Shown: one piece after another, positions 1,985 through 20,950 of the stretch
Layout of the letters: every line of letters starts with the position of its first letter
Position numbering within the stretch: the first letter of the stretch is position 1
Source of the DNA: a bacterium
Lineage (GTDB): Bacteria; SAR324; NAC60-12
DNA length: 21,316 bases
Direction: 5' to 3'
Assembly (NCBI GenBank): GCA_965233585.1
Contig: CBDDTI010000095.1
Coordinates: 1 to 21,316, forward strand
Program-made: the position numbers and the translations under genes
Notes under the pieces: model-generated
What the model was told of the DNA's origin: nothing
What the model saw: the letters and a program-made list of their open reading frames with translations, nothing else
The model's database searches: none

Positions 1985-2583
<599 letters not shown>

Positions 2584-3405: not shown

Positions 3406-3483
3406 TGATCGTCACCGGCTGTTCAGTCACGCAGCACGCATTTTTGGTTGAAGCAGGCGTTGATTTAAAATCTCGTATTCCTA
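3406..3483 (-). repeat. Dispersed repeat, inverted copy of 11120-11197; probable DNA-element terminus
   Basis: The reverse complement taggaatacgagattttaaatcaacgcctgcttcaacc...ggtgacgatca aligns ungapped to 11120-11197 with about 12 mismatches in 78 bp. Confidence 0.8.
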
Positions 3484-3866
3484 GAGAAATGAGCAGCCTT
3501 ATTAGATTATTTTATACGTTTTCAACACTTCATCTTTTCATTATCTTGGTTTTAAAAGCCATGCTCTAATTATAAGTGGAAAACGCACCAAATAATACTT
3601 CAATTTTGGGATGAGTTTTGGATGGGCATGGCCCCGGATCCCCTAGTGGTATGGGCCGATATTTGCTACTGGACGGTGACTCACACAACCCTAGCTTAAA
3701 CCTTGATTCAATGCATGTCGAGAATGAATTTCATCACCAGAGTGATGAATCAATAAAATTGATATCTTCCTGAACATCAAACCAAAAAAGCAATACTTTA
3801 TTTTGTTTCCCCGAGTAAAATGTTTTGAAAGTTAAACATATTTACAAACATATTTAAAAACTATTC

Positions 3867-4043
3867 TGTAAGAAATAATTGACAGTTCATAGTCACGTGA
3901 TTTAGACCACATGCTTTCGCAAGCTAGTTAGGTTTCGTGTTTCAAAAAGAATCTTGTATGATTTTCGCTTAGTTATGATGGAATGTGAATCGAACGATTA
4001 AACAAGTTAAAATTGGTGGTGGACGAACTCGTATTATTTGATA
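3867..4043 (+). repeat. 5' LTR (TG...TA; terminal CA mutated)
   Basis: Direct repeat of 10335-10511 with about 10 substitutions in 177 bp. Confidence 0.96.
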
Positions 4044-4061
4044 TGGCGCCCAACGTGGGGC
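4044..4061 (+). promoter_or_regulatory. Primer-binding site complementary to the tRNA-Lys(CUU) 3' end
   Basis: TGGCGCCCAACGTGGGGC directly after the 5' LTR; this is the canonical Lys1,2 PBS 18-mer. Confidence 0.93.
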
Positions 4062-4521
4062 AGTGAACACACAATCGACGAAATGAGCGAGGAATTAGCG
4101 CGGTCTTGCGCTAAACGTGGTGGTAATCAAACTGTATTGACGAAGCTTGCGAACGAAGCACATGATTTGCTGAAAAAGGAGGTGTTGAATCGGCCACGAT
4201 TGAAAACTCTGGCGGAATAGATATTAGAGAAGTTGGCAATTGTAAAATCCCTCGACGAAGCGATTCTGGAAACGTGTAAGGTCGAAGACATCGAACTCGA
4301 AAAAGAAGAATCGTACGAAATTAACGAAAGAGCGTTGGAAACACGACGAAGGATCATGGATGCGTTAGCCGCTGTCGAGAAGGGCCCCGACAAGTCCGAC
4401 AACAAGGAAATTGGTGGAGTTAATGTGCCCTTGGTGTCCCTTGAATAGCCTCCTATTTCTGGAGATGAACACGCAAATGAACCGTTAAATTTGGATTCTG
4501 GAAGCCCCTCAATTCATGTGC

Positions 4522-4619
4522 CGGGGAGCTCGAACGCAACACACGCTGGAAACACACAATCGTCGGGGAGCTCGAATGCAAACACACTACACGCTGGAAA
4601 CACGCAATTATCGGGGAGC
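4522..4619 (+). repeat. Short in-frame tandem repeat in gag (~42-48 bp, two units plus a partial)
   Basis: cggggagctcgaa..acacgctggaaacac repeated; encodes GSSNATHAGNTQSS / GSSNANTLHAGNTQLSGS. Confidence 0.8.
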
Positions 4620-4648
4620 ACTGATAATGCAGGTATGGTTCAACAAAC

Positions 4649-5071
4649 TAACTTTAGTTCGTTAGCTAATCCAAAGGCAAAGTTACCTAAGCTCGTTCTA
4701 CCGAAGTTTAGAGGTGTAATAACTCAATGACAGACTTTCTGGGATAGCTTTAACAGTGCCATTCACGTAAAGCCCGATCAATAAATTAAATCATTTACAC
4801 TCGTTGTTGGAAGGCCAAGCAGCCCGCGCTATACAAGGATTGACTCGAACAGACGCGAACTAACTTTAGTTCGTTAGCTAATCCAAAGGCAAAGTTACCT
4901 AAGCTCGTTCTACCGAAGTTTAGAGGTGTAATAACTCAATGACAGACTTTCTGGGATAGCTTTAACAGTGCCATTCACGTAAAGCCCGATCAATAAATTA
5001 AATCATTTGCACTCGTTGTTGGAAGGCCAAGCAGCCCGCGCTATACAAGGATTGACTCGAACAGACGCGAA
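4649..5071 (+). repeat. 212-bp tandem duplication inside gag
   Basis: 4649-4860 is repeated from 4861; one internal mismatch seen (catttacac vs catttgcac). Confidence 0.95.
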
Positions 5072-5779
5072 TTATCAATCGGCTATTGAAATTTTGCAGA
5101 ATCGTTTTGGAAGGCCCCAGAACATAATTTCAACGCATATGGATGAGTTGCTAAAAATTCCTGGGTGTACTAGCGACAAAGCTTCACAGCTCCGATTCCT
5201 GTATGACAAGATTAGCGTAACTGAACGTGCGCAGTCTGGAGTCCCTTGGTGTCAGTTCTAGCCATTATGGTAGCTTGTTAATTCCCTTGATTATGTCCAA
5301 ATTACCTCAAGAACTACGAATTCAATTCGCTAGAAACACGGCTCAAGAGGTCTGGCAAATGTCTGACATATTGGATGTGATTCGACAGGAAGTAGAGGCA
5401 CGAGCGAAGGTGTTAAGGTGAACGCTGACAAACCTAACCCAACATACAATCAGATGAAAACACCGTCTGCTGCAGCTCTTAGCGCTAACGTTAACGAAAG
5501 CTCGTTTGGAATTCCTCCGAAGAGATCGAAGATGTTTTGTTTGCTTGCGATTTGGTCATCAAAGCATGCAGTTCGTGTAGTTTGGACTGTCGGCGTTCTC
5601 ACGGAAAACGTCATCAGTCCCTGTGTCGCCAAACGAATTCACCGAGAGAGACATCTAACCCAAACGAGTATTCGCAAAACACGCAGACTCTTGTGGGTCA
5701 CGTTACAAACAGTCACACAATGGATGGTCACGCAGCGAACTCACAGACTCAGAGAATCACAACAGCTGCCAGTTCGGAG

Positions 5780-8700
5780 ACGAAAGGACACGTTTTATTG
5801 CAAACCGCAACTGCACTCGCAACAAATCAAGATGGGTCGAAGTCCACAAGGGTGAAAATATTGTTCGACTATGGAAGCCAACGTTCGTATTTAACAGATA
5901 GTCTTAAGTCTAGGCTTAGCCTGAAACCAACGAGGACGGAAACCCTCCAACTCAATACATTTGGGGAAAGGAACTTTCGAAAACAAAAATGTGATGTTGT
6001 AACTTTGCATCTTGAGAGCTGCAACGACGAGACTGTGGAGGTTTCGGTCCTTAGTTTTCCTGCTATTTGTTCACCGCTCCCGACAAGAGTAGACGCAAGC
6101 AGCTACCCGCATTTGAAAGGACTGCAATTAGCAGACTGCTCCGATTCTCAAGATTCGATTGATGTCCTAATTGGATCGGACTATTACTGGGACTTTGTAG
6201 CCAATGAAATCGTGCTCGGAGACTTTGGTTCTAGAGCGATCAATAGTAAATTCGGATGGCTGCTCTCAGATCCAGCGGAGTTCGCTACCAGTTCTGAAAC
6301 AACTGTGACAAACCTGATCATATCGGGCAACAACAATGATTTGTTCGACCACACCCAATACCCCCTCGTTGGCACTTTGAAGCAGTTCTGGGAAACTGAA
6401 TCTATCGGAATAAAAGTAGAATTGGAATGCGAGCAGTCAAGCGATTGTTTCAACGACAATGTGCGATTTAATGGTGAACGTTACGAAGTGGAGCTCCCGT
6501 GGAAGGAGAATCGTCCTGTCATATCAAGTGATTACGAACTGTGTGTTGACCGTCTCAAATCTCCGCAACGAAGATTGTTGAAGGACCCAGAGTTAATTCA
6601 GGAATACCATCGAATCATTGAAGATCAAATTAGCCAGGGAATTGGGGAAAAGGTCCCGGCAGAGCAAGGCGAAGTCAACGAAAGCGAAACTGTGCATTAT
6701 TTACCGCACCATGGTGTGATCCGAAGGGATCGAGAAACGACTAAATTAAGAATTTTGTATGACGGATCAGCTAAGCCACCTGGACGCATTCACTCCTTGA
6801 GCGACTGTCTTCAAACTGGTCCTAATTTTACACCACAGTTGTTTGACACTCTTGTTAAATTTCGCTGGCACAACATTGGTCTGACTGCCGATATCGAGAA
6901 GGCCTTTCTGATGGTAGGAATTCGTGAGACCGACAAGGACATGCTGAGATTCCTGTGGTTTAAAGATCCTGGCGACCTGAATTCCGAAATTGAACTTTTG
7001 AGATTTACGAGACTGGTGTTTGGACTGAGACCATCGCCAGCCATTTTAGGATCGACGATTCGACACCATTTAGATACGTAACTATCAGAAGAAATCAATA
7101 TGGAATTGATCGAGCGGTTAAAGAATTCCCTGTCTGTGGATGGTCTCGTTACCGGAGAACCGAACAACGATAAGGTGTTGGATTTGTACTCCAAGTCTGA
7201 ATCAATTATGCAGCGATGTGGATTCAATTTGCCAAAATGGAACACTAACTCGACCGTTGCAAGAGAGGTAATCAATCGATCAACCGAAGGAGTGACGCCC
7301 CCATCTGTATCCGAAGGCGCGAAGTTCGTCACCGAAGAAGATGAATCTTATGCAAAGGCCACAACAGGACCACCAGTCAATGACGACAAGACCGCTGACC
7401 GAAATATTGTCAAGGTGTTGGGCTCAATTTGGAATATTGCAACCGACGAGTTCACGTTCAACTTGTCTGATCTTGCAGAACAAGCTAAGCTGCTGCTGAC
7501 TACAAAGCGATCATTGCTGAAGATCTCGGCTAAAATATTTGATCCACCTGGACTGTTAAGCCCATTTACTATACAGTGGAAGGTTTTATTTCAAGTACTC
7601 TGTAATGAGCGCACCGATTGGGATGAACAATTGAGTGACGGACACTTGACGAGATGGAATTCACTCATCGCCGAACTTCAAACACTGAACAGTGTTCGCA
7701 TGCCGAGATGTTACTTCGACAGCCATTCAGCAAGTTTGCTAAAATCAGCGCAACTTCACTGTTTCAGCGATGAATCTGAGAAAGCGTACGCAGCAGTCAT
7801 TTATATTCGCTCGCTTTACGAGGATGGACATATGGAAGTCAATTTAATGGCATCGAAAACCAAAATTGCACCGTTAAAGAAACAGAGCGTCCCCAGGCTT
7901 GAGTTACTCGGCGCTACCATTCTGGCACGACTGGCTAAAACTCTGCAGAACGCGTTGCCCCAGAAGTTAGAAACTGTGTACTGGGTCGATTCCATGACAT
8001 TCTTATGCTGTATCAGGAATACAAGGCCATGGAAACAGTATGTCATGAGCAAGGTGCAAGAGATCCGTGAGAGCACTACTCCAGCGTCTTGGAACTTCTG
8101 TCCCGGCGAACAGAACCCAGCAGATATCCCTTCGCGTGGATTGACAGCGAGCGAACTGGTCACCGAATACAAATGGTGGAAGGGTTTGGAAATTCTGTAC
8201 AACGTTGAAGAAGAATGGCCGCGTGAGGACAACTCCCACTCCGAGAACGAAAATGCCATGAAAGAAATCGTGAAGAATCCTGCAACTATCACATATGTTT
8301 TGGTCAGCGGTGAACAAGTGTGAAAGACTGGCTTACATCAAATCATTGATGCTAACCACTACAGCAGCTTGACAAAATTGTTGCGTGTCACTGCTTACGT
8401 CCTTCGATTTACGAGGAGATCAAAGGAGAAGAGAGGTCCCGAACTGAACGCAGAAGAAATACGAGCTGCCGAAGAACTGTGGATTAAGTCCATACAGAAC
8501 CAATCGTTTCAAGAGGAAGTGTGCCAATTGATGTCGAAAGGAAAAACGCTCGTTCCAATTCTTGTGCGACAGTTTGACCTGTACATAGATGAGAGAGGCA
8601 TCATGCGATGCAAGAGTAGAATTCAGAACAGTTCACTCAATCAAGACGCCAAAACTCTAATGTTGTTGCCTTCAAAGCATCATGTGGTGGATTTGATTGT

Positions 8701-10143
8701 CGGTGTCAATCACCAGCGGATGCTGCACAGCGGAGTAAACGCAACGTTGACGTCTGTGAGAGAGCGGTTTTGGATATTGCAATGAAGACGAGCTGTCAAA
8801 AGGTGCCTAAGAAGATGCGTGACGTGCCGAGGGACAGCCATTCCCACTACCACAGACACCCGATTTACTCGAAGAACGAGTTTCTGATTGTCCACCTTTC
8901 ACGCACACAGGTGTGGACTTCGCAGGTCCTTTATACACGACAGATAAAGGTTGAACAAACACAGATGAAGCTAGAGCTTACGTTTGTCCGTTTACGTGCG
9001 CCTCCACTAGAGCCGTACACTTGGAGCTAACAAGACGAGTGACTGCCGAAGCCTTTCTATTGGCCTTTCGCCGATTCACGAGTAGAAGAAGTTTGCCAGC
9101 CACATTACTATCGGACAATGCCAAGACATTCAAGTCTGCTTCAAAGGAAGTTGTGAAAATAGCAAGAGCCCAAGAAGTTTTACATTACTTGGCAAACAAC
9201 GGTGTAACGTGGAAATTTAATGGTTGACTAGGCTCCATGATGGGGCGGATTCTGGGAACGCTCAGTTCAAACCGTAAAAAGGCCACTAAAGAAAGTGATT
9301 GGACGGGGTTGTCTGAATTTCGAAGAGCTCAGTACCTTGCTGACGGAAGTGGAATGTGTCGTCAATGCTAGACCTGTAGCATACGTTTAAGATGACTTGG
9401 ACGGTGTGAATTTTGCGCTAACTCCTTCACACTTGATCAATGGTAGACGCTTGCAGAACACTCCCAATTCAAGCCATTTTGAGGTTGTTAGCACCCATGA
9501 CAAGGGCGGATCCAGGATTTTGAAATGCGGGGTGAATTTTTGTAATAATGTCAGAGAAATCAAATATTATTTTAATATTTGAGGGATAAGAAAAAAAAAA
9601 AGGAATGGGGGGGGGGGGGGGGGGGCTCAGAAAAAAAAAAGGGGGGGGGGTGAAAATTCACCCATTTCACCTCCTCTGGATCCGAGCCTGCATGATACGC
9701 TGACTCGACGATCGCAGCACCAGAAACGCCTGCTGAATCAGTTTACAGCTGCCTGGAGATAGAAGTATTTGGTCAACTTACGCGAAGCACACGCCACGAA
9801 TTCGAGGAGAAAGGGAGAGAATCCCGGAATTGCTGTTGGCGACGTAGTACTGCTTCAGAATGATTCGACCAAGAGAGCACTGTGGAAATTAGCGATCGTG
9901 ACAGAATTGCTAGTAGGAAGTGACGGCCAGGTCAGAGCGGCTGTTGTGCGGGTAGCAGATACTGGAAACTTACTCAAGAGGAGTGTCAAACATTTGATTC
10001 CCATTGAAGTGAAGGCCAACGTTGACCCATTGCCGCAGCCCGAGGGTTCAGTTCGGTCTAAACAAGGAACAGTAACTGTTGATAGCAGACCTCGACGTAA
10101 GGCGGCGATTGATGGAGAAATTCTACGGAGACTGAGATCATAA
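5780..10143 (+). pseudogene. pol: BEL/Pao pol remnant: aspartic protease, RT, RNase H, integrase, C-terminal DUF5641-like domain
   Basis: Protease VLLQTA..ILFDYGSQRSY; RT YLPHHGV..KLRILYDGS, TADIEKAFL, LVFGLRPSP, with YVDD degraded to SVDG near 7133; RNase H LHCFSDESEKAYAAVIY, PRLELLGA, NPADIPSRG; integrase HQRMLHSGV..CVTC, GVDFAGP, SDNAKTF, WGGFWER; GDVVLL. Multiple stops and frameshifts. Confidence 0.95.
9501..9690. mobile_element. 190-bp MITE nested in the integrase region
   Basis: TIRs caagggcggatccag / ctggatccgagcctg; 5-bp TSD CATGA (9496-9500 and 9691-9695); removal restores ...VSTHD-TLTRR. Confidence 0.9.
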
Positions 10144-10326
10144 GAATTTTGACTATTTGAAATTTGCTGAACCTTTTTCGTGTTTCAATTTTCTCGAACT
10201 TGCAGTATGTTGCAATGGAACTGAGACCACAAGTGGTCTTCAAGAACTCATTAATTTGCGAGCTTCATTTGTTGTATTAGTTTTGTCATTTCACAAATAC
10301 ATCTGTATCACTAAGTGTGAACAGAT

Positions 10327-10334
10327 GCGGGGAG
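10327..10334 (+). promoter_or_regulatory. Short polypurine tract
   Basis: GCGGGGAG directly before the TG of the 3' LTR. Confidence 0.7.
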
Positions 10335-10511
10335 TGTAAGAAATAATTGACAGTTTATAGTTACGTGATTTAGACCACATGCTTTCGCAAGCTAGTTAGG
10401 TTTCGTGTTTCAAAACGAATCTTGTATGATTCTCGCTAAGTTATGGTGGACTATGAATCGAACGATTAAACAAGTTAAAATTGGTGGTGGACGAACTCGT
10501 AATATTTGACA
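10335..10511 (+). repeat. 3' LTR (TG...CA)
   Basis: Direct repeat of 3867-4043, followed by TSD TATTC. Confidence 0.96.
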
Positions 10512-11119
10512 TATTCAAAGTAGTGGATTTAGCTGTGCAATGTTCTACTAGCTTCCGGGGAATTCGTTTGCAAATTGCACAAAACTGCATGTCCGGGTTT
10601 TTCGGGTATCAGAACGCTTTGTGAACACGCCATCAAAATTGGTTTCTCTAACAATAAGAGGAAATTCTGCTTTAATCTAGTATGCCATATAACTTTGTGA
10701 AAATTGGCAAGTCTGGGATGCCATATTTTTATGACTTTGATATGGATACTTGTGAAACTTCGCCCACATTATGTATTCGATTTACTCGGAATCAAATCGA
10801 GCGGCTACTTAAGAACATTTGTATCGGCATGGTATCGGTAAAAAGGTCCATTTCGGATATCAGTTTGGATAAAAATCTTTCTATGAGCTCTCCCGAATTA
10901 TTAACAACTGACATTCGCAAAAAGAGTGTCCCGGACGGTCTAATGTGAGCAGCGAACAAATCACTCAAATGGTGTTGACATTGACCCAACTGTTGCTTTG
11001 GCGATGACTCAATTAAAATTAGTATAAGAGCAATCTTATAAAAAGAAATAAGAAAATAAAAAAGTCAAAGGTGTTAAAAAAGTACGTATCAAATAGTCTA
11101 AAAAGGCTGCTAATTGCTA

Positions 11120-11197
11120 TGGGAATAAGAGGTTTTAAATCAACGCCTCCTTCAATCAAGAATGCGTGATACGTGACGAAACGGTCGGTGACGATCA
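11120..11197 (+). repeat. Dispersed repeat, inverted copy of 3406-3483
   Basis: About 85% ungapped identity by eye. Confidence 0.8.
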
Positions 11198-11460
11198 CTA
11201 GTGGTCCGTCACAAGCACATCCTGGGAGACCCAGGGGCTACTAGCCGGGAGGAAGCGATATTTTTGGGCGAAAGTTTACTTCAAGAGCTGAAGAGCCCCT
11301 GGGAACTTCTTCTTACAGAACCAGTTCCAAAAGTGGTCAAATTCCGTCCCACTGATTGGACAAAGGCCAATCACCGAGGAGCTCCAGCCGGGTAACTCTG
11401 TCACCTTCTTACACAAAATGGTTTTCTTTATTCGATCGACCTGCTCGGCCCGTACAGCGT

Positions 11461-11802
11461 GAAAATTGTCTTGGAAAGTTTCATAAAAAAAGTTTCAACG
11501 AAGCCGATGAGATCACAAGCCGTAACATGGGGGCTGGGAAACAATACTCTGCCATCAATTATTTCATGAATTTTTACAGCTAATGTACGTGATCTCTACA
11601 CTGCACCGTTGTTTTAGGTTTCGGGGAGAGCTAGTCGTGTGCACAAGCTTACTAATTATATCCCCTCGATCGTTGAACAATTTCTGAAACTTACAGCATG
11701 TGCAGATCGTCATTGCACGGGCCATGCAACTGTGTCGACCGAACGTGGGAACGATCGACTAATTACAGTGCACGCGCCTTCTTGTTATCGCGCCAAACCA
11801 AA
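11461..11802 (+). repeat. Diverged outer inverted repeat, left copy (the interspersed repeat may begin near 11219)
   Basis: Aligns with indels to the reverse complement of 17265-17630; shared blocks caagccgtaacatgggggctgggaaacaata, agctagtcgtgtgcacaagcttact, cctcgatcgttgaacaa, atcgcgccaaaccaaa. Confidence 0.9.
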
Positions 11803-11899
11803 AATCCCTTAGCAATATGGCTTTCAACAGTGTTGGGCGTAGATTCCACTACAACTCGATAATTTCTGGCTATGATCTATCCCTGTTGTCGTTCTGTTA

Positions 11900-13564
11900 C
11901 AGTGCGGACACTCGAACCATGAACGCTATGGCTTTATTTTCGCTTTATTTGTACTTTTTTTTCACTTATTTTAATATTTTTTCCCAACTAGCCAATCACA
12001 GCCTCGAGTCGATGCAACGGCCGAGACTTTTTCCTGCCTTTTTTCCACGTTATTTTCAAAGTGGTGCCATGATTTCAAACAACGGCGGAGACATTTTTAC
12101 AATTTTTTTTCCGATTTTTTATCAATCACGGTTGTTTCGCTTCCTTACAAAAGTGGGATATTGTACCATTGAAACCAGTATAATGGCGCTTTCTGATGGA
12201 ATACTTGTGTTTTCCCACCACCGTGGCTATAAATAGCTTGCGTGCAAGAGACCAGATCTGGAGATAAGCTGTCAATCATGATGTTATAAATAACCGCAAT
12301 TCCTAATATTTGAATCATCTATTTTGGAAACAGCTTCGACAATTGCTATTTCGGTCTCATTGAGATCGAGTGAGCGATGTATTTTGTTTAAGGTAGCATT
12401 TTACCTGGTTGAAGCAAAACTCGCAGGTATTTTAGAGGTGGGGCGAGTACGAAGGCTGGAACAAAATATTGTAGTAATCAAATGAGTGAAACAGGTTTAG
12501 CGTCTAGTTCGCATTCGAGGCGTAGCGCAGTACTTCGATGGCAGGCTCGCCGATTTATGAATTACCCAATACAAGATTTCATGAAGTAAATTTGACACCG
12601 GTCTCATCAAAAAAGTGAAGTGTAGTACAGTCTAGTTGCGCAATTTGACCAAGAAAATAATCTTTTAAGTTGACGTTTACGTCTGACAATGACTCCGTCG
12701 GTAGTTGGCTAAGTTTTTTCTTCGTCATAAAACAGTCCTCCCGAACGCACTTTTTTGCACTTTGAGATGGCGAAAGATGAGGTGGCGAAACTCCATCCAG
12801 CAATAAGCGCTGTTGAAGTTCAGAAGTGTATGTGCTGGGCTTGCACAATTTCTCGGATTCAATGTAATCAACAACGTCTTGTGTAACAACATTACGAGTC
12901 GCTAATTTTCACGTCGGAGGAAGAGACATGTTGTTGTCGATGTCCACATAGTTTTGAACTACTTTATTGACATAGCCAATACTAACTCGCATTGTGCCTG
13001 AAATTCGTCTTTGGGAAAATCCCTGGTAGTGGAGATCAAGAATTCCCTCTCGATAAATATTTGGTAACGCGCTTTCATTATCGTAGATGCCTCGTTGCTG
13101 ATTAATCCTGAGATTACACTGATCTAATTATATCAAGACAAATAATAGAAAGTCATTTTTTCGTTCCCCAAAACAACAAAAATATCTAAAGATGCATCTG
13201 TTTAGATGAAAGTAGTACTTACTAGTATAATTTGCTGGAGCTTAGGCCATTTCACGGTGAACTGAATACCCGAGTCTGACTTCAGTGAACGCAAATTAAT
13301 TCCGGCCAAAAAACCCGCTAACCTTGTTTGGAATACATGTATAACCGTACACCGAAAAGCGTCTCAAACGTGTTGCGTGGAACAATAAAAACACTGAAAA
13401 AAAGAGAAAAAATGTCTGTGCCATTGCTTCGGTTCACAAATGTGATTGGTTAGTTCTGGAAAAATATAAAAAATAACTACAAGATAAGTGGAAAAAAAGT
13501 ACAAATAAAGTGAAAATAAAGTGAAAATAAAGCCATGGCGTTCATGGTTCGAGTGTCTGCACTG
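11900..13564 (-). mobile_element. IS630/Tc1/mariner-superfamily DNA transposon, copy with both termini (1665 bp)
   Basis: TA|CAGTGCGGACACTCGAACCATGAACGC ... GCGTTCATGGTTCGAGTGTCTGCACTG|TA; imperfect TIRs of about 100 bp; TA flanks; internal transposase remnant. Confidence 0.92.
12284..13250 (-). pseudogene. Paired-domain + DDE transposase pseudogene; predicted exons 13250-13223 and 13123-12284
   Basis: Manual translation: INQQRGIYDNESALPNIYREGILDLHYQGFSQRRISGTMRVSIGYVNKVVQNY...VVTQDVVDYIESEKLCKPSTYTSELQQRLLLDGVSPPHLSPSQS (paired domain), HFFDETGV, QPSYSPHL*NTCE, NCGYL*. Several in-frame stops; the second-Asp region appears deleted. Confidence 0.87.
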
Positions 13565-14490
13565 TAATTAGTCACGCAAAAGCGAAAGCGTGAGTTTTTC
13601 CCACAAGTTTTGCAGTTATTTTATCGGCTGTGGCTTAGCCTGCTGTGGCTTTGCCTATCGCGCTAAAAGCTGAATTCAACTTCGAACTAATATGTACATT
13701 ACCATTTTTGTTTTCTTAAGTCCAGGCAGCTGCTTTCAATCCGCTATCTGTGTTCAAAACTCGCTTGAAAGCGCACCGATCGCCTCGTTAATCGTTTTCG
13801 TCGCGGTTGAGCTAAGGGAAGGAAAATTATTCACAAGAAATGTTTGAGGGCTCCGTTCACCTTGATCTTCCATTCTGAGGCCACCTAAACATCGATTCAT
13901 GTTTTTAATTTTCATTTTAAGTGCCAAAGAAGTAATTTGTCCGTGTTAGGAATGAAAACAAGACCCTGGAAGTTTGTAGATTTGATCCGCAAAACGTCAT
14001 GATTAGCTGCACTATTCGAGCGCGTGATTTGAAGACAAAAAACCGTCTTCAATAGCACCGGGTCACCGCGTTTTTAAAAATTGTATACTATGACAAAATT
14101 AAATTTCCTTTTTTGGATATCGTCAAGAATCAGCCTTTTGATTTAATGTAGATTTTATGCCATTTTTATGCGACAAAGCATAGGCGCCCTTGGCCGGCGT
14201 GATTTTTATTTCCGGCCCTGCTGGCAGAAGAGACCTCTGCTAACAGGGAAGATTTTTATGAAAGCCGAGGCGTAATTCTGTTATCGAAATGAGTACACAG
14301 GCAGATGTTATTTTCTCTTTTCACATTAGTAATTAGAAGGTTTTTTTTCATTAAAGAATGTTTGCCATAAAATAGATTTTCATGTCCCGCGACAAACTTG
14401 TTGATGTGAACGACTCTAATGCATGCTAGTGTAAACGTGGGTTGCCAATGCAAAAGTGACCCCGGTAAAATTCACGAAGTGATTCTCGTT
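13565..14490 (+). repeat. Inner palindrome arm, left
   Basis: Reverse complement of 15085-16012, near-identical. Confidence 0.97.
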
Positions 14491-15084
14491 GTATTTAAGT
14501 ATGTAAGGCTGGCAAATTATCCTTGGCCCCCGCAGAGATTACGTGAGACCCTGAATGCGTCATTGTGTCAAGGGCTGTGCTGTAACCATTATCCCATAGG
14601 CTGCCCACAACAAGTCACCTTGACCGTTGTGGTCTGATTGCATTGTTAATCTGAATGAGATGTTATTTATAAAATTGAAGGAGCCAAGCCGCGCACAATC
14701 ACACACAATCAATTATGTGAGATCCTGAATGTGTCATTGTGTCAAGTGCTGCGAAATATTGTCTTTTCTTATCACAATGTGATCTGCATCATGGCAGCTT
14801 TCTATTGGTTACACCCAAAATCATGTTTAGTTATAAATGCACCATTATTCCGTGTAAGTTAGAGCACTTCTCTTCGGTGGCGTGCTGTACTGAGTAAGCT
14901 TTGTTCTAGTCGCTGTAAGGTTTTCGTTATTACTTGACACAGGAACGTTACATTAATTTTATTTTGTTTGTCTTTATTCTTAGATCTACGATTCACATCA
15001 GAAATTGAGGCTGGAAGCAAGACTACCCAATCAAAGGTAATCACTTTACGAATAGAGGAAAGATCAAATTATGCAGTATTTAAG
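14491..15084. other. Palindrome spacer bounded by the 9-bp direct repeat GTATTTAAG
   Basis: GTATTTAAG at 14491-14499 and 15076-15084, each directly abutting an arm. Confidence 0.85.
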
Positions 15085-16012
15085 AACGAGAATCACTTCG
15101 TGAATTTTACCGGGGCCACTTTTGCATTGGCAACCCACGTTTACACTAGCATGCATAAGAGTCGTTTACATCAACAAGTTTGTCGCGGGACATGAAAATC
15201 TATTTTATCGCAAATATTCTTTAATCAAAAAAACCCTCCAATTGCTAATGTGAAAAGAGAAAATAACATCTGCCTGTGTACTCATTTCGATAACAGAATT
15301 ACGCCTCGGCTTTCATAAAAATCTTCCCTGTTAGCAGAGGTCTCTTCTGCCAGCAGGGCCGGAAATAAAAATCACGCCGGCCAAGGGCGCCTATGCTTTG
15401 TCGCATAAAAATGGCATAAAATCTACATTTTAAAAATCAAAGGCTGATTCTTGACGATATCCAAAAAAGCAAATTTAATTTTGTCATAGTATACAATTTT
15501 TAAAAACGCGGTGACCCGGTGCTATTGAAGACGGTTTTTTGTCTTCAAATCACGCGCTCGAATAGTGCAGCTAATCATGACGTTTTGCGGATCAAATCTA
15601 CAAACTTCCAGGGTCTTGTTTTCATTCCTAACACGGACAAATTACTTCTTTGGCACTTAAAATGAAAATTAAAAACATGAATCGATGTTTAGGTGGCCTC
15701 AGAATGGAAGATCAAGGTGAACGGAGCCCTCAAACATTTCTTGTGAATAATTTTCCTTCCCTTAGCTCAACCGCGACGAAAACGATTAACGAGGCGATCG
15801 GTGCCCTTTCAAGCGAGTTTTGAACACAGATAGCGGATTGAAAGCAGCTGCCTGGACTTAAGAAAACAAAAATGGTAATGTACATATTAGTTCGAAGTTG
15901 AATTCAGCTTTTAGCGCGATAGGCAAAGCCACAGCAGGCTAAGCCACAGCCGATAAAATAACTGCAAAACTTGTGGGAAAAACTCACGCCTTCGCTTTTG
16001 CGTGACTAATTA
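15085..16012 (-). repeat. Inner palindrome arm, right
   Basis: Reverse complement of 13565-14490. Confidence 0.97.
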
Positions 16013-16019
16013 ATTCCAA

Positions 16020-16711
16020 CTATGTCAATAAAGTAGTTCAAAACTATGTGGACATCAACAACAACATGTCTCTTCCTCCGACGTGAAAATTAGCGACTCG
16101 TAATGTTGTTACACAAGACGTTGTTGATTACATTGAATCCGAGAAATTGTGCAAGCCCAGCACATACACTTCTGAACTTCAACAGCGCTTATTGCTGGAT
16201 GGAGTTTCGCCACCTCATCTTTCGCCATCTCAAAGTGCAAAAAAGTGCGTTCGGGAGGACTGTTTTATGACGAAGAAAAAACTTAGCCAACTACCGACGG
16301 AGTCATTGTCAGACGTAAACGTCAACTTAAAAGATTATTTTCTTGGTCAAATTGCGCAACTAGACTGTACTACACTTCACTTTTTTGATGAGACCGGTGT
16401 CAAATTTACTTCATGAAATCTTGTATTGGGTAATTCATAAATCGGCGAGCCTGCCATCGAAGTACTGCGCTACGCCTCGAATGCGAACTAGACGCTAAAC
16501 CTGTTTCACTCATTTGATTACTACAATATTTTGTTCCAGCCTTCGTACTCGCCCCACCTCTAAAATACCTGCGAGTTTTGCTTCAACCAGGTAAAATGCT
16601 ACCTTAAACAAAATACATCGCTCACTCGATCTCAATGAGACCGAAATAGCAATTGTCGAAGCTGTTTCCAAAATAGATGATTCAAATATTAGGAATTGCG
16701 GTTATTTATAA
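16020..16711 (+). pseudogene. Truncated paired/DDE transposase pseudogene (second copy)
   Basis: ORF 16147-16416 is identical to 12579-12848; same stop codons as the left copy. Confidence 0.87.
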
Positions 16712-17095
16712 CATCATGATTGACAGCTTATCTCCAGATCTAGTCTCTTGCACGCAAGCTATTTATAGCCACGGTGGTGGGAAAACACAAGTATTCCATC
16801 AGAAAGCGCCATTATACTGGTTTCAATGGTACAATATCCCACTTTTGTAAGGAAGCGAAACAACCGTGATTGATAAAAAATCGGAAAAAAAATTGTAAAA
16901 ATGTCTCCGCCGTTGTTTGAAATCATGGCACCACTTTGAAAATAACGTGGAAAAAAGGCAGGAAAAAGTCTCGGCCGTTGCATCGACTCGAGGCTGTGAT
17001 TGGCTAGTTGGGAAAAAATATTAAAATAAGTGAAAAAAAAGTACAAATAAAGCGAAAATAAAGCCATAGCGTTCATGGTTCGAGTGTCCGCACTG
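16020..17095 (+). mobile_element. Second, inverted, 5'-truncated copy of the IS630/Tc1 element
   Basis: Reverse complement of 11900-12975 with two mismatches noticed; ends CACTG|TA; lacks the equivalent of 12976-13564. Confidence 0.93.
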
Positions 17096-17264
17096 TAATA
17101 CTAGTGCACTGCGTAATCATCATTAGAAGAACTTAAAATTCCCCAACAATATTTTGTTTCCTTCCTTTATCCAAGAAAAATAGACCCACACAATCTGCAA
17201 CAATCCACTTCACACTGTGGATCCATCGTGCAGAAGACGAACTATATTTACTCCTACAGTTACA

Positions 17265-17630
17265 TTTGGTTTGGCGCGATGGCAAGAAAGTGCGTGCAGG
17301 GCGTGCACTGTAATTAGCAGTAATTAGTCGCTCGTTCCCACTTTCGGTCGACGTCGTTGCATGACCTGTGAAACAGCGAAAAGTTTCAGAAGTTGTTCAA
17401 CGATCGAGGAGATATAATAAGTAAGCTTGTGCACACGACTAGCTTTCTCCGCAACCAAAAACAACAGTGTAGAAATCGCGTACATTAGCTGTAAAAATTT
17501 ACGATATAACTTCGATAAATCCGCCGAGAAACCTGAAGGACGAATATTGTTTCCCAGCCCCCATGTTACGGCTTGCGATTTCATCGGCTTCGTTGAATCC
17601 GTTGATCTGAAACTTCCCACGACAATTTTC
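17265..17630 (-). repeat. Diverged outer inverted repeat, right copy
   Basis: Reverse complement aligns to 11461-11802, roughly 80% with indels. Confidence 0.9.
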
Positions 17631-18060
17631 CACTAAAGCTGAAGTAGCTGGTTACCTCCATTTGGCATGTAAAATACTGAAGCATGACAGAAATTGTAAC
17701 TTGTGTATTATTAACAAGTAAGTAAATGATTTTTCCCGTGCAATCTTTTAGTCGTTGAAAAATTTGCACGAGCTTATTTAATCCAAATTGCATTTAAAAT
17801 CATTTAATTACCTATACGAATAATTTAATGTAAAATGTTTCCTTTCTACCTCGTTATCATTCCCATAAATTTGGAATAACAAATTGTTCTCCCTCCATAT
17901 AACCTCGATTGCCTTACACTAAACTGGCCCCAGGAACGCTTAACTAATGCCTTTTAGAGCATAGTCCCGATTTTTTGTTTGCTTTGATAAATGTCATATA
18001 TATTTTATGAGATGCGACATATTTCAATTCAATGCGAGTCAGTCGAATATTCGACTGATC

Positions 18061-19043
18061 CACGCCGGGGCCAAACGCTCCTAAAATCGGTCATCTAGAT
18101 GTCCAAAGTTTGATTATTTCATCATAACTCTAAATGTAAAAAATATCTCAAATGTCCACATTTTTTGACAACAAAATTGACATCAAATATCAAAATATGA
18201 CGTCACAATTAATGACGTCATGCCTTAACCTTGATAAAAAAATTCCAACTATTTTTTGTTTTTCTTTAGAAAGAGCATAGCGAGAGGAGTTAAAAGCTGA
18301 AAACCGTTTGCCCATATCTTAAAAATTAAAGGAGATATGACATTTTGCATTTTATAGAAATCTCAGTCCAAAAACGGTGACCCCCGTCAATAAATATTTT
18401 TAAATTGAAGTTGTGTTTTCTTGTTAGTAATCTCGCTTGTATTGCATGTTGACTCTCCTATATGAGTAGAACTGGTCCAGTTCAAAAAAATGTCCATCGA
18501 TGTTTTTCCTGCCCCTCTAAGCACCTTAAAATGTATTTGTGATGTCATTAGAAGTGACGTCATCAATTATTTAAGCAACAAAAACTTGTTTAATAATCCA
18601 AAACTAAAAAATCTAAAATCATACGATTTTTAGTAGTACTAAGTACTCTATATTACTACATTCTCAGAGTTCCTCGAAGAAAACTGAAGAAAACAAATTA
18701 AGGGGTTTTGATATTAGAGGAACAGTCTGGTTCCAGGGGGGAAGCGAAATTTCTTTAACTTGCTATAACTCGAGAAATATTTGTCATAGCGAGGAACGGT
18801 TTTCAGTATTGTAGTCCCCTTGGCCCTGGTCATGCTCTTTCAGATGGTATATTTGGTGGTTTGAAATTAGAAAACTTGTATACCACGTTTTGATGACGTC
18901 ACAAAATGGCATTTTGCCTTTTTTTACTCTGGAAATGATCAAGACGCTTAAGCAAGGCAGTGTGCAAAGTTTGGTGAGAAAATGTGTGAAGAGTGCAAAC
19001 TTGCCCTAGATGACCGATTTTAAGGTCGTTTGGCCCCAGTGTG
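18061..19043. mobile_element. Non-autonomous TIR element with CAC...GTG termini (CACTA/Chapaev/Transib-like)
   Basis: Left cacgccggggccaaacgctcctaaaatcggtcatctag vs reverse complement of right cacactggggccaaacgaccttaaaatcggtcatctag; ATC on both flanks; no ORF. Confidence 0.75.
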
Positions 19044-19066
19044 ATCCAGTCGAATATACGACTGAC

Positions 19067-19290: not shown

Positions 19291-20117
19291 GACTACTTTA
19301 AAGTCTGCTAATTTAAAACTCACCTTCTCGCGGAGTGTTGCATTTACCATTCACCGCCTGTTAATTTAGCCCGTGTTAAATTCAACTTGTCAAAATGGTT
19401 TTCAAAAAGTCGTTCCGTTTTCGGCAGTCAACATTGCCCCACCTAGTCTGAATTTTCAAAAATCCCATTTCGTTGTTGTCAACTTTATCAGTCGGTGTTT
19501 AGAGATTTCATTTTGCTTTATAATTATTATACATTTTTTTTAATCTTTGGATTCATACCATTACCAAAAGACCATGATCTAGATCACACGGAAGTATCGA
19601 GGAGAACTTTGTTCAACACCTCCCTGAAAAAAAAAAAAAAAAATTGAAAGATAGTTTATCTCAAAAAAGTTTCTAAGCAAATGAGGGGAGGACAAATACA
19701 CAGCGACAGGAAACAAAGATGGGCCTTTTGATCTACGCCTGTTTGCATGACTTCATCACAAAATCGATACAGTATATTGCTTATAAGTACTACTGCTCGT
19801 GAGTACTAAATCCAGCGAGACCGCCTCACAATTCCTTTGTTTTCAATCTCCAACAGTTAATCTTTCCGCGTATAGGTTTTATTTGGCAAACTTTATTGTT
19901 ATTCACAGTATCAGCTCAGCAGTTGAAAGTCAATTTGTTTTTTTTCTTTTCGCTCCATTCTTCTACACCCGAAGGTCCAATTAGGAAAAAAAAATCAGCA
20001 ACCATATTACCACACCTATCATTGTCGCCTACCTAAAATACAGGTCGGGCTTCGGATAGATGACTGAAATTAATGATCACAAGTTAATGTGTCTGTTGGC
20101 AAACAAAAATACACTAA

Positions 20118-20633
20118 GGCCTCGTCCACACTAATCCGTTTTCGAACGAAAACGGAGCTGTTTTGCTCTGGATACGGCTCTCGTCCACACCACAACGCCG
20201 AAAACGATGACCGAAAACGGAGCCATTCGAAAACGCTCTCCAGGGTGGAGCGATTTGAAAACGATGCTTTTTGAAAACGCTGTTTTCTAGTGTGGACGGA
20301 GAAAACGATGCTACCTGAAAGCGGTGACGTCATCAAACCAGATACGACCGGGCTCCAGACCACTCGACCGTCATTATCTAAAATGGTGGACAGACGCTAC
20401 CATGTGGCTTCACTTTCGCGCCAATTCCGCGGGCTGATATATTGAAATGCGCATGTGTCCGGTTCATTTGTGCATGCGCTTTGAGTGTATAAAAGCGTTT
20501 TCAAAACGGATACGGCGTTGTAGTGTGGACGGGGGAAACGATACGAAAACGATAAGTGTGGACGCAAATCTTTTTGAAAACGAAGGAAAACAGCTCCGTT
20601 TTTGTTTGAAAACGGATTAGTGTGGACGGGGCC
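20118..20633. mobile_element. PIF/Harbinger-type MITE
   Basis: TAA|GGCCTCGTCCACACTAATCCGTTTTC ... GAAAACGGATTAGTGTGGACGGGGCC|TAA; TIRs of about 45 bp, 3-bp TAA TSD, many internal GAAAACG and GTGTGGACG motifs. Confidence 0.9.
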
Positions 20634-20950
20634 TAAAAGAAAGCGAGCAACGTCAACCACGAAGCTAAGGTACTTATTGTACAGAGATGTTTTTTCTTTG
20701 TATTTTTCCCTGATGACCGCGGTTAGTTTAAGAACAAGTTGATGGAGATCTGTTTTCGATTCTTTACAGTACAGCTATTAGACATTCTTTGCATAACAAA
20801 TTGTGGGAAGTTTTCCGATGGGATGACGAACAAGATTCTATCGCTGCGGTTAATATTTTGCATGGGATTTCAAGAAACTTGAAGAAGCGCAGTCACGACA
20901 TTTTGTGCTATTTTCAACATTGACAAAATACCTTTGAGTTGAAAACTAGG

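Follow-up and report, generated by a model that had tools for sequence, protein, structure and literature searches.

Layout of the palindrome

The window (the whole 21,316-nucleotide stretch of DNA that was analysed) carries a palindrome at 11897..17098, whose arms pair far beyond chance by sequence comparison and whose parts are collected in Table 1. The sequence-only reading had taken it for a bacterial composite transposon built like Tn10 from two inverted Tc1/IS630 copies. The arm pairs on which that view was built are real: 11897-12975 matches 16020-17098 with 2 mismatches in 1079, and 13565-14490 matches 15085-16012 at 98.07%, with 12 mismatches and 3 gaps in 930 columns, for an overall difference of 14 substitutions and 3 gaps. 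The precise outer Tc1/IS630-type termini also hold, with a TA outside each CAGTG end, arm identity stopping one base further out, and TTAA targets on both sides. The self-complementary cargo of about 2.4 kb is right as far as pairing arms go, but 594 bp of the inner 2.45 kb (14491-15084) is spacer. Likewise, the flanks are unrelated over the first 97 bp on the left and 167 bp on the right, but beyond that 11461-11802 and 17265-17630 are inverted homologues. What falls is the picture of two whole Tc1 copies round passenger DNA, because the right copy is truncated and the cargo consists of the ends of another transposon. Neither a functional transposase in a flank nor passenger genes in the middle, as Tn10 or Tn5 would lead one to expect, is present; the cargo contains no gene, and the block codes for nothing functional. 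The setting is not bacterial either: contig C95, which is the window, belongs to a bacterial assembly that also contains coral-like DNA, and the host is an animal. Long near-identical palindromes occur at 10 other loci in the same coral-like DNA.

Table 1. Coordinates and strands of the features in and around the palindrome.
Feature	Coordinates	Strand	Description
Host palindromic MITE, left arm and left part of centre	11218..11897	+	old element
Left junction TA	11898..11899	no strand	TTA context
A-left	11900..13564	-	complete non-autonomous Tc1/IS630-type element; 3' end 11900, 5' end 13564
Dead transposase frame	12354..13133	-	paired-type DNA-binding domain and DDE remnant
A-left inner (5') TIR	13492..13564	-	private change at TIR position 7 (base 13558)
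B-left	13565..14490	-	926-bp end of a chimeric transposon family present in many copies; starts at TA joined to A 5' end
B-left terminal module, ~160 bp	14331..14490	-	older, more diverged part of arm
9-bp direct repeat, copy 1	14491..14499	+	inside-out target-duplication-like
Spacer, 594 bp	14491..15084	no strand	no match elsewhere in assembly
9-bp direct repeat, copy 2	15076..15084	+	
B-right	15085..16012	+	15085 is the exact element terminus
7-base patch (+1 shared base)	16013..16019	+	equals uninterrupted B beyond TA; not on left arm
A-right	16020..17095	+	inverted copy of A-left 3' 1076 bp; without inner TIR and 5' end
Right junction TA	17096..17097	no strand	
Host MITE, right part of centre and truncated right arm	17098..17631	+	probable sister to left arm

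Two transposon families in the arms

Judged by its sequence (paired-like HTH and DDE regions, TIRs and a TA target), element A is a member of the IS630/Tc1/mariner superfamily. The TIRs of A-left are about 75 bp long and 88% alike, and the paralog C607 has both of its ends. The transposase frame is dead: its 260 codons include 7 stops, and about 63 more have been lost, the one for the second catalytic D among them; a PAX match is found in the window frame (E 3.4e-12) and a DDE_3 match in another A paralog (C735, E 8.9e-7), intact homologues combine PAX and DDE_3, and the homologues show a D..D38E spacing when counted by eye. The nearest relatives are paired-domain transposases of stony corals (PF00292 + PF13358), 7 homologues being 46-75% identical to A over aligned columns. 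A looks like a deletion derivative of these, with CAGT ends and a TA target, and differs from them in its dead frame; the placement is by similarity. We found no intact family-A transposase in the assembly, which covers part of the host genome, and the A TIR had 0 matches in viral contigs. The proposed mobilisation in trans does apply to family A, which is non-autonomous and was amplified in trans: C607 has the same stops and the same deletion. TA lies at all three A ends in the window and at both ends of C607, and the context is TTA at 7 of 7 family-A-like ends in the assembly. At TIR position 7, 6 of 7 TIR-like ends of the assembly have G, and the A-left inner TIR has A.

A-right lacks 588 bp on its 5' side, the inner TIR included. 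The block thus has three Tc1 ends and not four, both outer ends being the A 3' end, and the outer right terminus is 3'-type from position 7 inward. A-right differs from A-left at 2 positions, versus 20-22 from C607, which makes the split between the two copies about 10 times younger than that between A and the paralog (20/1076). The A arms are about as old as the outer B arms (2/1076 versus 4 events/755, p 0.24), and both are far younger than the paralog split; A-right was therefore copied from A-left, and a single event can account for both pairs of arms. In total, 1076 bp of A and 926 bp of B form an inverted duplication of element sequence.

By sequence comparison, the 'cargo' consists of a spacer faced by two ends of another transposon family, B, which is present in high copy number. 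B-left is 94% identical to its paralog C251, and the family runs on past 13565 in paralogs and in read contigs. The B-right terminus is common to 31 of 35 metagenome loci, with 24 distinct flanks that are not TTAA-specific. A second B end was seen in 0 of 19 metagenome loci and not in C251, and KolobokP-type direct terminal repeats were likewise not seen; a Helitron-like hairpin was also considered for the B end, where the fold is weak (-3.8 kcal/mol over the last 50 bases). A PF20700 transposase (E 2.6e-83) is reached from the B terminus in 3 of 31 loci, and its zinc-finger layout fits the description of Kolobok in PMC9587614. Outer B instead matches C39:246-2237, an element with a 9-bp duplication and a fragment that is RecQ-like by eye. 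For comparison, three sources give target duplications of TTAA for Kolobok, 8-11 bp for MULE and 9-10 bp for AcademH (PMC9587614, PMC6446971, PMC10045372). Neither viral contigs nor genome contigs held a B end (0 matches) or further PF20700 transposase loci.

The spacer is bounded by an exact 9-bp direct repeat (chance about 1e-5) that the sequence-only reading had passed over. C14 carries a second inside-out 9-bp repeat, and an empty target on the same contig joins spacer end to spacer start, so inside-out repeats can be real target duplications. Arm identity is 94.7% adjoining the spacer and rises in a step to 99.2-99.8% further out. The step, about 160 bp from the spacer, coincides with a family-wide B terminal module, where 170 columns hold 9 substitutions, against 6 in the 755 columns beyond it (Fisher p 3.6e-4). 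What happened at the centre of the palindrome goes further back and is not accounted for by Tc1 transposase. Outside the terminal module, 6 of 6 polarised changes lie on the right arm (p 0.03, with a boundary picked after the data were seen); when the module is counted in, private changes are similar in number on both arms. The patch at 16013-16019 matches C251 at 7 of 7 bases (chance about 1e-4) and, being equal to paralog sequence, is not random filler.

Host element, insertion site and copy number

The block is flanked by the halves of an older repeat. The left MITE arm is 75-77% identical to C569, C586, C642, C678 and C97 and partially to C671, and among the two-ended pairs listed for this family 8 of 11 have exact 9-bp target duplications. 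The right arm is cut off at 17631, where another repeat begins. Among 9 assembly arm segments the two flank arms are mutual closest relatives (tree support 100/99); 15 of 318 columns are common to these two alone, and they are 11% different over aligned columns. In orientation and spacing they suit a single element whose centre measures 264 bp, and if the flanks were joined the target would read TTAA. Probably, then, on the strength of this likeness, the flanks are sister arms of one old palindromic MITE and the block entered a single TTAA in its centre: if they are sister arms, entry at one site follows as probable. The claim of a compound element moved by transposase is to this extent borne out, since flanks that are halves of one older element fit entry of a block, but the centre of the palindrome is older than such a move. 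The inner CAGTG motifs at 11766 and 17310 were considered as a nested Tc1 MITE and rejected, being part of the host arms.

The searches turned up no empty site, and the case for single-site entry therefore depends on the tree of 9 segments. Past its first 45 bp, the 264-bp centre matched nothing else in the assembly, a 20-base left-flank pattern had 0 matches in metagenome contigs, and 40 related and 63 same-order genomes held no true match to the empty site; these genomes are bacterial and say little. One 45-base match in G014 (E 8.5e-4) was taken as chance.

It is also conceivable, if distinctly improbable, that the flanks are two separate MITEs of the same subfamily, joined by inversion, deletion or an A-driven rearrangement, in which case the two TAs are not one target. 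Every Tc1 end bears TA, and therefore TA on both sides is no proof of one target; other host copies have no homologue of the 264-bp centre past those 45 bp, and the truncated right arm makes a 9-bp host duplication uncheckable. Two copies of one MITE subfamily would look alike, which counts against single-site entry. The sister grouping, and an orientation and spacing right for one element, nevertheless speak against separate MITEs, and the two arms of the intact copy C569 group together in the same tree.

Read depth suggests one copy of the block. In runs X14 and X16 the unique spacer is covered at depths of 15-19 and 7-8, against 24-30 for the flank contigs, which is at or below single-locus depth, and its coverage shows 0 differences; the comparison spanned the left half (10520-15084), and the assembly holds part of the host genome. 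In X1 and X2 (share 0.11-0.12) the unique spacer has a depth of about 0 and the flanks many differences, from which we draw no inference. The block is probably present on some haplotypes only.

The further composite copies that were to be looked for elsewhere did not turn up: neither the assembly nor the 40 and 63 bacterial genomes holds a second copy. An established, repeatedly mobile Tn10-like composite family is thus very unlikely, the more so as spacer depth is below flank depth in both X14 and X16, and the cargo is without a gene; perfectly matched outer TIRs with a changed or missing inner TIR do fit the asymmetric-TIR model proposed for bacterial IS630 composites (PMC11544213). It is extremely unlikely that the palindrome is a fold-back artefact of assembly or library. 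Few reads may underlie host contigs that sit in a bacterial bin, none of the read records listed covers the whole block, and X14 and X16 may be the source samples. Yet the arms differ at the substitutions and gaps given above, the right arm agrees with C251 where the left does not, and the palindrome, after ending exactly at TIR and TA, continues into a sister arm that has diverged, which is not how a fold-back chimera would behave. In 2 of 4 runs, moreover, a single 347-bp contig carries the join of B-left and spacer with 0 differences, although its B side is 28 bases long, below the 31-base threshold. Among the joints listed this is the one displayed, and the absence of 11899 and of the right-hand junctions from that list carries no weight.

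Origin of the block and known counterparts

We tentatively favour, at somewhat less than even confidence, a history in which fold-back duplicated the sequence once and the product then moved as a composite unit. Two B ends already faced each other across the 9-bp-bounded spacer. A dead Tc1-type A would then have inserted at a TTAA inside the left B, as the junction indicates, and at a break or stalled fork the inverted B ends of about 160 bp may have paired and primed synthesis. Such synthesis could have laid down outer B and A a second time in reverse orientation, so that a long palindrome arose with an identical A 3' end on either side. A Tc1-type transposase acting in trans would have used these two like ends, a choice perhaps favoured by the changed conserved base in the inner 5' TIR, and set the 5.2-kb block into the TTAA of the MITE centre. 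A 588-bp deletion may have removed the right inner TIR, with 7 bases templated by an uninterrupted B filling in at the join. A newly made copy is expected to hold the changes, so the right-arm bias of the 6 polarised changes fits fold-back, and in yeast single-stranded DNA, diverged and spaced inverted repeats drive fold-back (PMC10164571). The 7-base patch is missing from the left arm, which means that plain copying followed by deletion fails and an extra templating step is needed. We see it as close to an even chance that the block is a fossil of repair and one transposition.

The main rival is a composite insertion of the maize type, which we hold unlikely. There, A sat in a palindromic B-spacer-B, sister-chromatid 3' ends inserted together into an unreplicated TTAA, the forks re-copied 4.1 kb and 1.08 kb and aborted, and the broken ends joined at 16019/16020. 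One junction with 1 shared base would explain the truncation and the 7-base patch together. Maize composite insertions have their ends outside, unequal halves and junction microhomology of 0-9 bases (PMC4270019), and carry inverted duplications of element sequence (bioRxiv 2020.01.07.897926); here, termini lie at both borders, the halves measure 4.1 kb and 1.08 kb, and 1 base is shared. However, this course requires a separate, equally recent duplication of outer B and a fork aborting within 8 bases of the place that corresponds to where A itself inserted. In maize a 5' end is paired with a 3' end, whereas both outer ends here are 3', and a donor copy of the spacer is expected, yet spacer depth is at or below single-locus; the contig runs for 4 kb to the right before it ends.

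It also seems rather improbable that the block never moved and arose by gap repair in place. In that case a plain A lay in the host centre, the ends of a break copied an ectopic A-in-B, one end reading into B-spacer-B while the other came in through the similar 3' TIR, before the two strands were joined up. The block appears single-copy, the A TIRs are alike, and single-copy TIR elements with captured sequence in animals have mostly been put down to gap filling, with no transposition (PMC8277862). But the terminus, 3'-type from position 7 inward, leaves little homology for a 5'-to-3' switch, two A insertions and two template switches are required, and the identity step in B goes unexplained.

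The fold-back that we favour is a known kind of event, and the locus would be a single clean example of it, not a new system. It is a long shot that fold-back during repair gave rise to a mobile unit bounded by two like Tc1 ends, that this unit then transposed, and that read-through from the neighbouring LTR or MITE gives a hairpin RNA of about 2 kb against two families, and equally doubtful that such a locus would be a coral counterpart of Mu killer and Ac killer, still segregating. It is mostly from maize that composite insertions and silencing hairpins produced by aberrant transposition are known; a young and apparently polymorphic coral Tc1 case, if true, would extend them to animals and suggest that two like ends suffice. 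The locus shows how two unrelated families can give rise to long foldback elements; for the present it counts as a single dead locus in coral-like DNA that is rich in long palindromes.

Several known systems share parts of this architecture. Tn10 consists of inverted copies of one element with matched outer and weaker inner ends. The same arrangement is met in the block and in the bacterial Tn5 and Tn630-NC1 (PMC11544213), the transposase frames of the latter pointing outward as they do here. These bacterial composites differ in that here one copy is truncated, both are dead, the cargo is a geneless palindrome, the host is an animal and the copy is single. The 'two recombinant TIR' copies of Drosophila Galileo (PMC3573991) and inverted-repeat-primed fold-back in yeast (PMC10164571) likewise lengthen the arms of non-autonomous elements with inverted internal sequence; here, however, the priming repeats appear to be inward-facing ends of another family, and the copied tract takes in the whole-end part of an unrelated Tc1-type element. 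Animal Pack-TIRs resemble the block in having TIR ends round captured DNA, a single copy and repair-type junctions, but keep a left and a right end and capture host sequence, whereas here two like ends enclose transposon DNA and a spacer (PMC8277862). An inverted duplication of element sequence is also met in the silencing loci Mu killer and Ac killer; among 17 sequencing-run records, 0 were of RNA. The maize Ac/Ds composite insertions and macrotransposons produced by alternative transposition (PMC4270019; bioRxiv 2020.01.07.897926, 'Ac killers') have the same outer ends, unequal halves, microhomology junction, inverted duplication of element sequence and movable-unit shape. They differ in belonging to hAT, with an 8 bp target, while the coral-like block is Tc1/IS630-type with TA and two 3' outer ends, and they are known with a pedigree, where ours is inferred from one contig.

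Source of the DNA

The window comprises contig C95 in full. Its assembly (12.0 Mb, 747 contigs) is filed as a bacterium, but the window is animal DNA. This follows from its BEL/Pao-type retroelement, from the lack of any true match to it in 40 related and 63 same-order genomes, from the coral metagenomes among the public runs that contain parts of it, and from the stony corals that supply the named homologues of its transposase. The assembly covers the host genome only in part, so a sequence missing from it tells little. Long palindromes are ordinary in this DNA: the assembly contains twelve arm pairs with a length of 700 bp or more and an identity of 97% or more, two of them the window's. The ten other near-identical palindromes (C15, C50, C110, C203, C251, C327, C339, C437, C461, C721) have arms of 737-3066 bp at 97.6-100%, and the assembly has no other long match to those of C339 and C437.

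Features of the window and related loci (window positions unless a contig or locus is named)
Feature	Position	Strand	Description
A-left	11900-13564	minus	complete non-autonomous element
A-right	16020-17095		3' 1076 bp of element A only
B-left, B-right	13565-14490, 15085-16012		family B ends
Spacer	14491-15084		594 bp
Host MITE	11218-11897, 17098-17631		
Second inside-out case	G000:C14:1522-6196		two ends of another MITE family facing a 2335-bp spacer with a 9-bp bounding repeat
PF20700 frame	L034:92-2361		open, 550 codons, behind a terminus; also L023, L048
RecQ-fragment element	L050:246-2237 (G000:C39)		2 kb, non-autonomous; TIRs, exact 9-bp duplication, RecQ-like fragment; presumably AcademH-like
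BEL/Pao-type retroelement	3867-10512		178-bp LTRs 94% alike, the right one pointing at the palindrome from 1.4 kb upstream; 5-bp target duplication; primer-binding site after left LTR; Pfam DUF1758, Peptidase_A17, DUF5641; frames broken by stops and shifts
Tandem duplication	4646-5069		212 bp, exact, within retroelement; very recent or assembly slip
Inverted pair	3406-3519, 11084-11197		114 bp, 84% alike, one each side of retroelement, which possibly entered an older element with these arms
Array	2301-2560		6-base G+C-rich unit; origin of long low-complexity ORFs
TIR element	18038-19066		
TIR element	20117-20634		87% alike to C531 over 535 bases

The palindrome and its host element

The palindrome is real and has TA at both outer ends. 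Its arms lie where the sequence-only reading placed them, the outer pair differing by 2 mismatches in 1079 bases and the inner pair by 12 mismatches and 3 gaps in 930 columns, but that reading interpreted the structure correctly only in part. It saw two inverted Tc1/IS630 copies, and the right one is truncated; its self-complementary cargo is not neutral but consists of family B ends facing a spacer bounded by a 9-base repeat. The flanks are unrelated, as it held, over the nearest 97 bp on the left side and 167 bp on the right side, but farther out they are inverted MITE arms, from a palindromic family whose 9-bp target duplications are exact in 8 of the 11 pairs listed. In a tree of nine arm segments the window arms are sisters (support 100/99), with 15 of 318 columns exclusive to both and 20 and 21 private columns. 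This sisterhood, together with an orientation and a 264-bp centre consistent with one old element, speaks for a single entry site of the block; two copies of one MITE subfamily would produce an identical tree, and that two such host copies were brought together is improbable. A contig in runs X14 and X16 (depth 27) joins the B end (14490) to position 11218, where the host MITE family begins, so the two families also adjoin at another locus.

Read contigs were compared with the left half of the palindrome region only; X14 and X16 come from one study, possibly the source. Each of these runs yields two contigs that cover the spacer and show 0 differences from it; one reaches across the B-left/spacer join but has 28 B-side bases, against a bar of 31, and the other extends 27 bases beyond 15084. 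No record among the read contigs shown, over that left half, spans the whole block. An artefact is barely credible. Spacer depth (15-19 and 7-8) is lower than flank depth (24-30), which hints weakly at a single-copy block carried by only some haplotypes. The unique parts of the spacer are missing from X1 and X2. An empty site was found neither in the assembly, the metagenome contigs nor the 40 related and 63 same-order genomes; an established mobile family is very improbable.

Elements A and B

With stops read as X, the A-left frame gives a paired-box match (E 3.4e-12) plus a DDE remnant. Of 314 candidate proteins, 124 pass E 1e-10, many with PAX and DDE_3; against seven of these the window copy lacks about 63 codons, the second catalytic D among them. 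The paralog C607 shares these stops and the deletion, so family A spread in trans after dying. Its summed contig depth in X14 and X16 (306-367, vs 24-30 for the flank contigs) suggests about a dozen copies, depth not being copy number. Two sites distinguish A-right from A-left, against 20 and 22 that distinguish the two from C607, so A-right is a recent copy of A-left. In coral data, paired-domain DDE transposases (P0122-P0241) are widespread, some labelled Pax proteins by their sources (e.g. P0220).

Identical 9 bases stand at both spacer ends, each abutting a B end (chance about 1e-5). The B end concerned is a precise terminus, common to 31 metagenome loci with 24 different flanks (35 carry its first 20 bases; 4 diverge at once, give no alignment and were dropped). 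Three loci lead from the terminus into a PF20700 transposase, while the match to outer B is an element that has TIRs, a 9-bp duplication and what was recognised by eye as a RecQ-like fragment, so B is a chimera. A second B end appeared in 0 of 19 loci with sufficient sequence. An inner direct repeat occurs in 4 of 449 inverted pairs (742 contigs), exactly abutting the arms in two, this locus and C14. At about 5429 of C14 an empty target copy joins spacer end to spacer start via one 9-mer (1 mismatch); inside-out repeats can thus be true target duplications, through tandem duplication or a circle, and, by analogy only, the window's repeat may be one too.

The L034 PF20700 frame, whose terminus has AT-rich, non-TTAA flanks, is Mutator-like per Pfam, and has a zinc-finger layout fitting Kolobok as described in PMC9587614; of 7980 candidates scored, 516 are its relatives at E 1e-20. 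The ends and target duplication of this element seem worth defining.

Origin of the block and known systems

The B arms are 94.7% alike in 170 columns beside the spacer vs 99.2% outside (p 3.6e-4); outer B (4 events in 755) does not differ from A (2 in 1076; p 0.24). The terminal module of B, the roughly 160 bp nearest the spacer, has private changes in both arms; outside it the right arm carries all six polarised changes (p 0.03, with the boundary set post hoc). That arm retains 7 bases of uninterrupted B beyond the TA where A-left joins (chance about 1e-4), and therefore did not arise from the left by plain copying and deletion. Gap repair in place we regard as distinctly unlikely.

The 3' end of A is outermost on both sides of the block, all seven TIR-like ends found lie in TTA context, and the single inner TIR carries A at its position 7, which is G in the other six. 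From anatomy, ages, terminus and sister flanks, all directly observed, we tentatively propose, at somewhat under an even chance as a whole, that old inward-facing B ends primed fold-back, copying outer B and A; that transposase in trans then moved the two like 3' ends into a host TTAA; and that the right inner TIR was deleted later, then patched. Composite insertion, in which sister-chromatid transposition is followed by aborted re-replication, is unlikely. Under either of these two readings a transposase would have placed the block as a unit, which we jointly consider probable, in line with the sequence-only reading.

The sequence-only reading likened the block to a Tn10-style composite. That membership fails on two tested features: unlike Tn5-type composites (PMC11544213) and Tn10, the block has neither two complete flanking elements nor a functional flank transposase with passenger genes. 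A coral or like-end Tc1 composite was absent from the titles and abstract openings of the openly accessible papers searched. The block is a further instance of an already known kind of event: it works like the maize composite insertion or macrotransposon (PMC4270019; bioRxiv 2020.01.07.897926) and resembles both Galileo TIR extension (PMC3573991) and fold-back at diverged repeats (PMC10164571).
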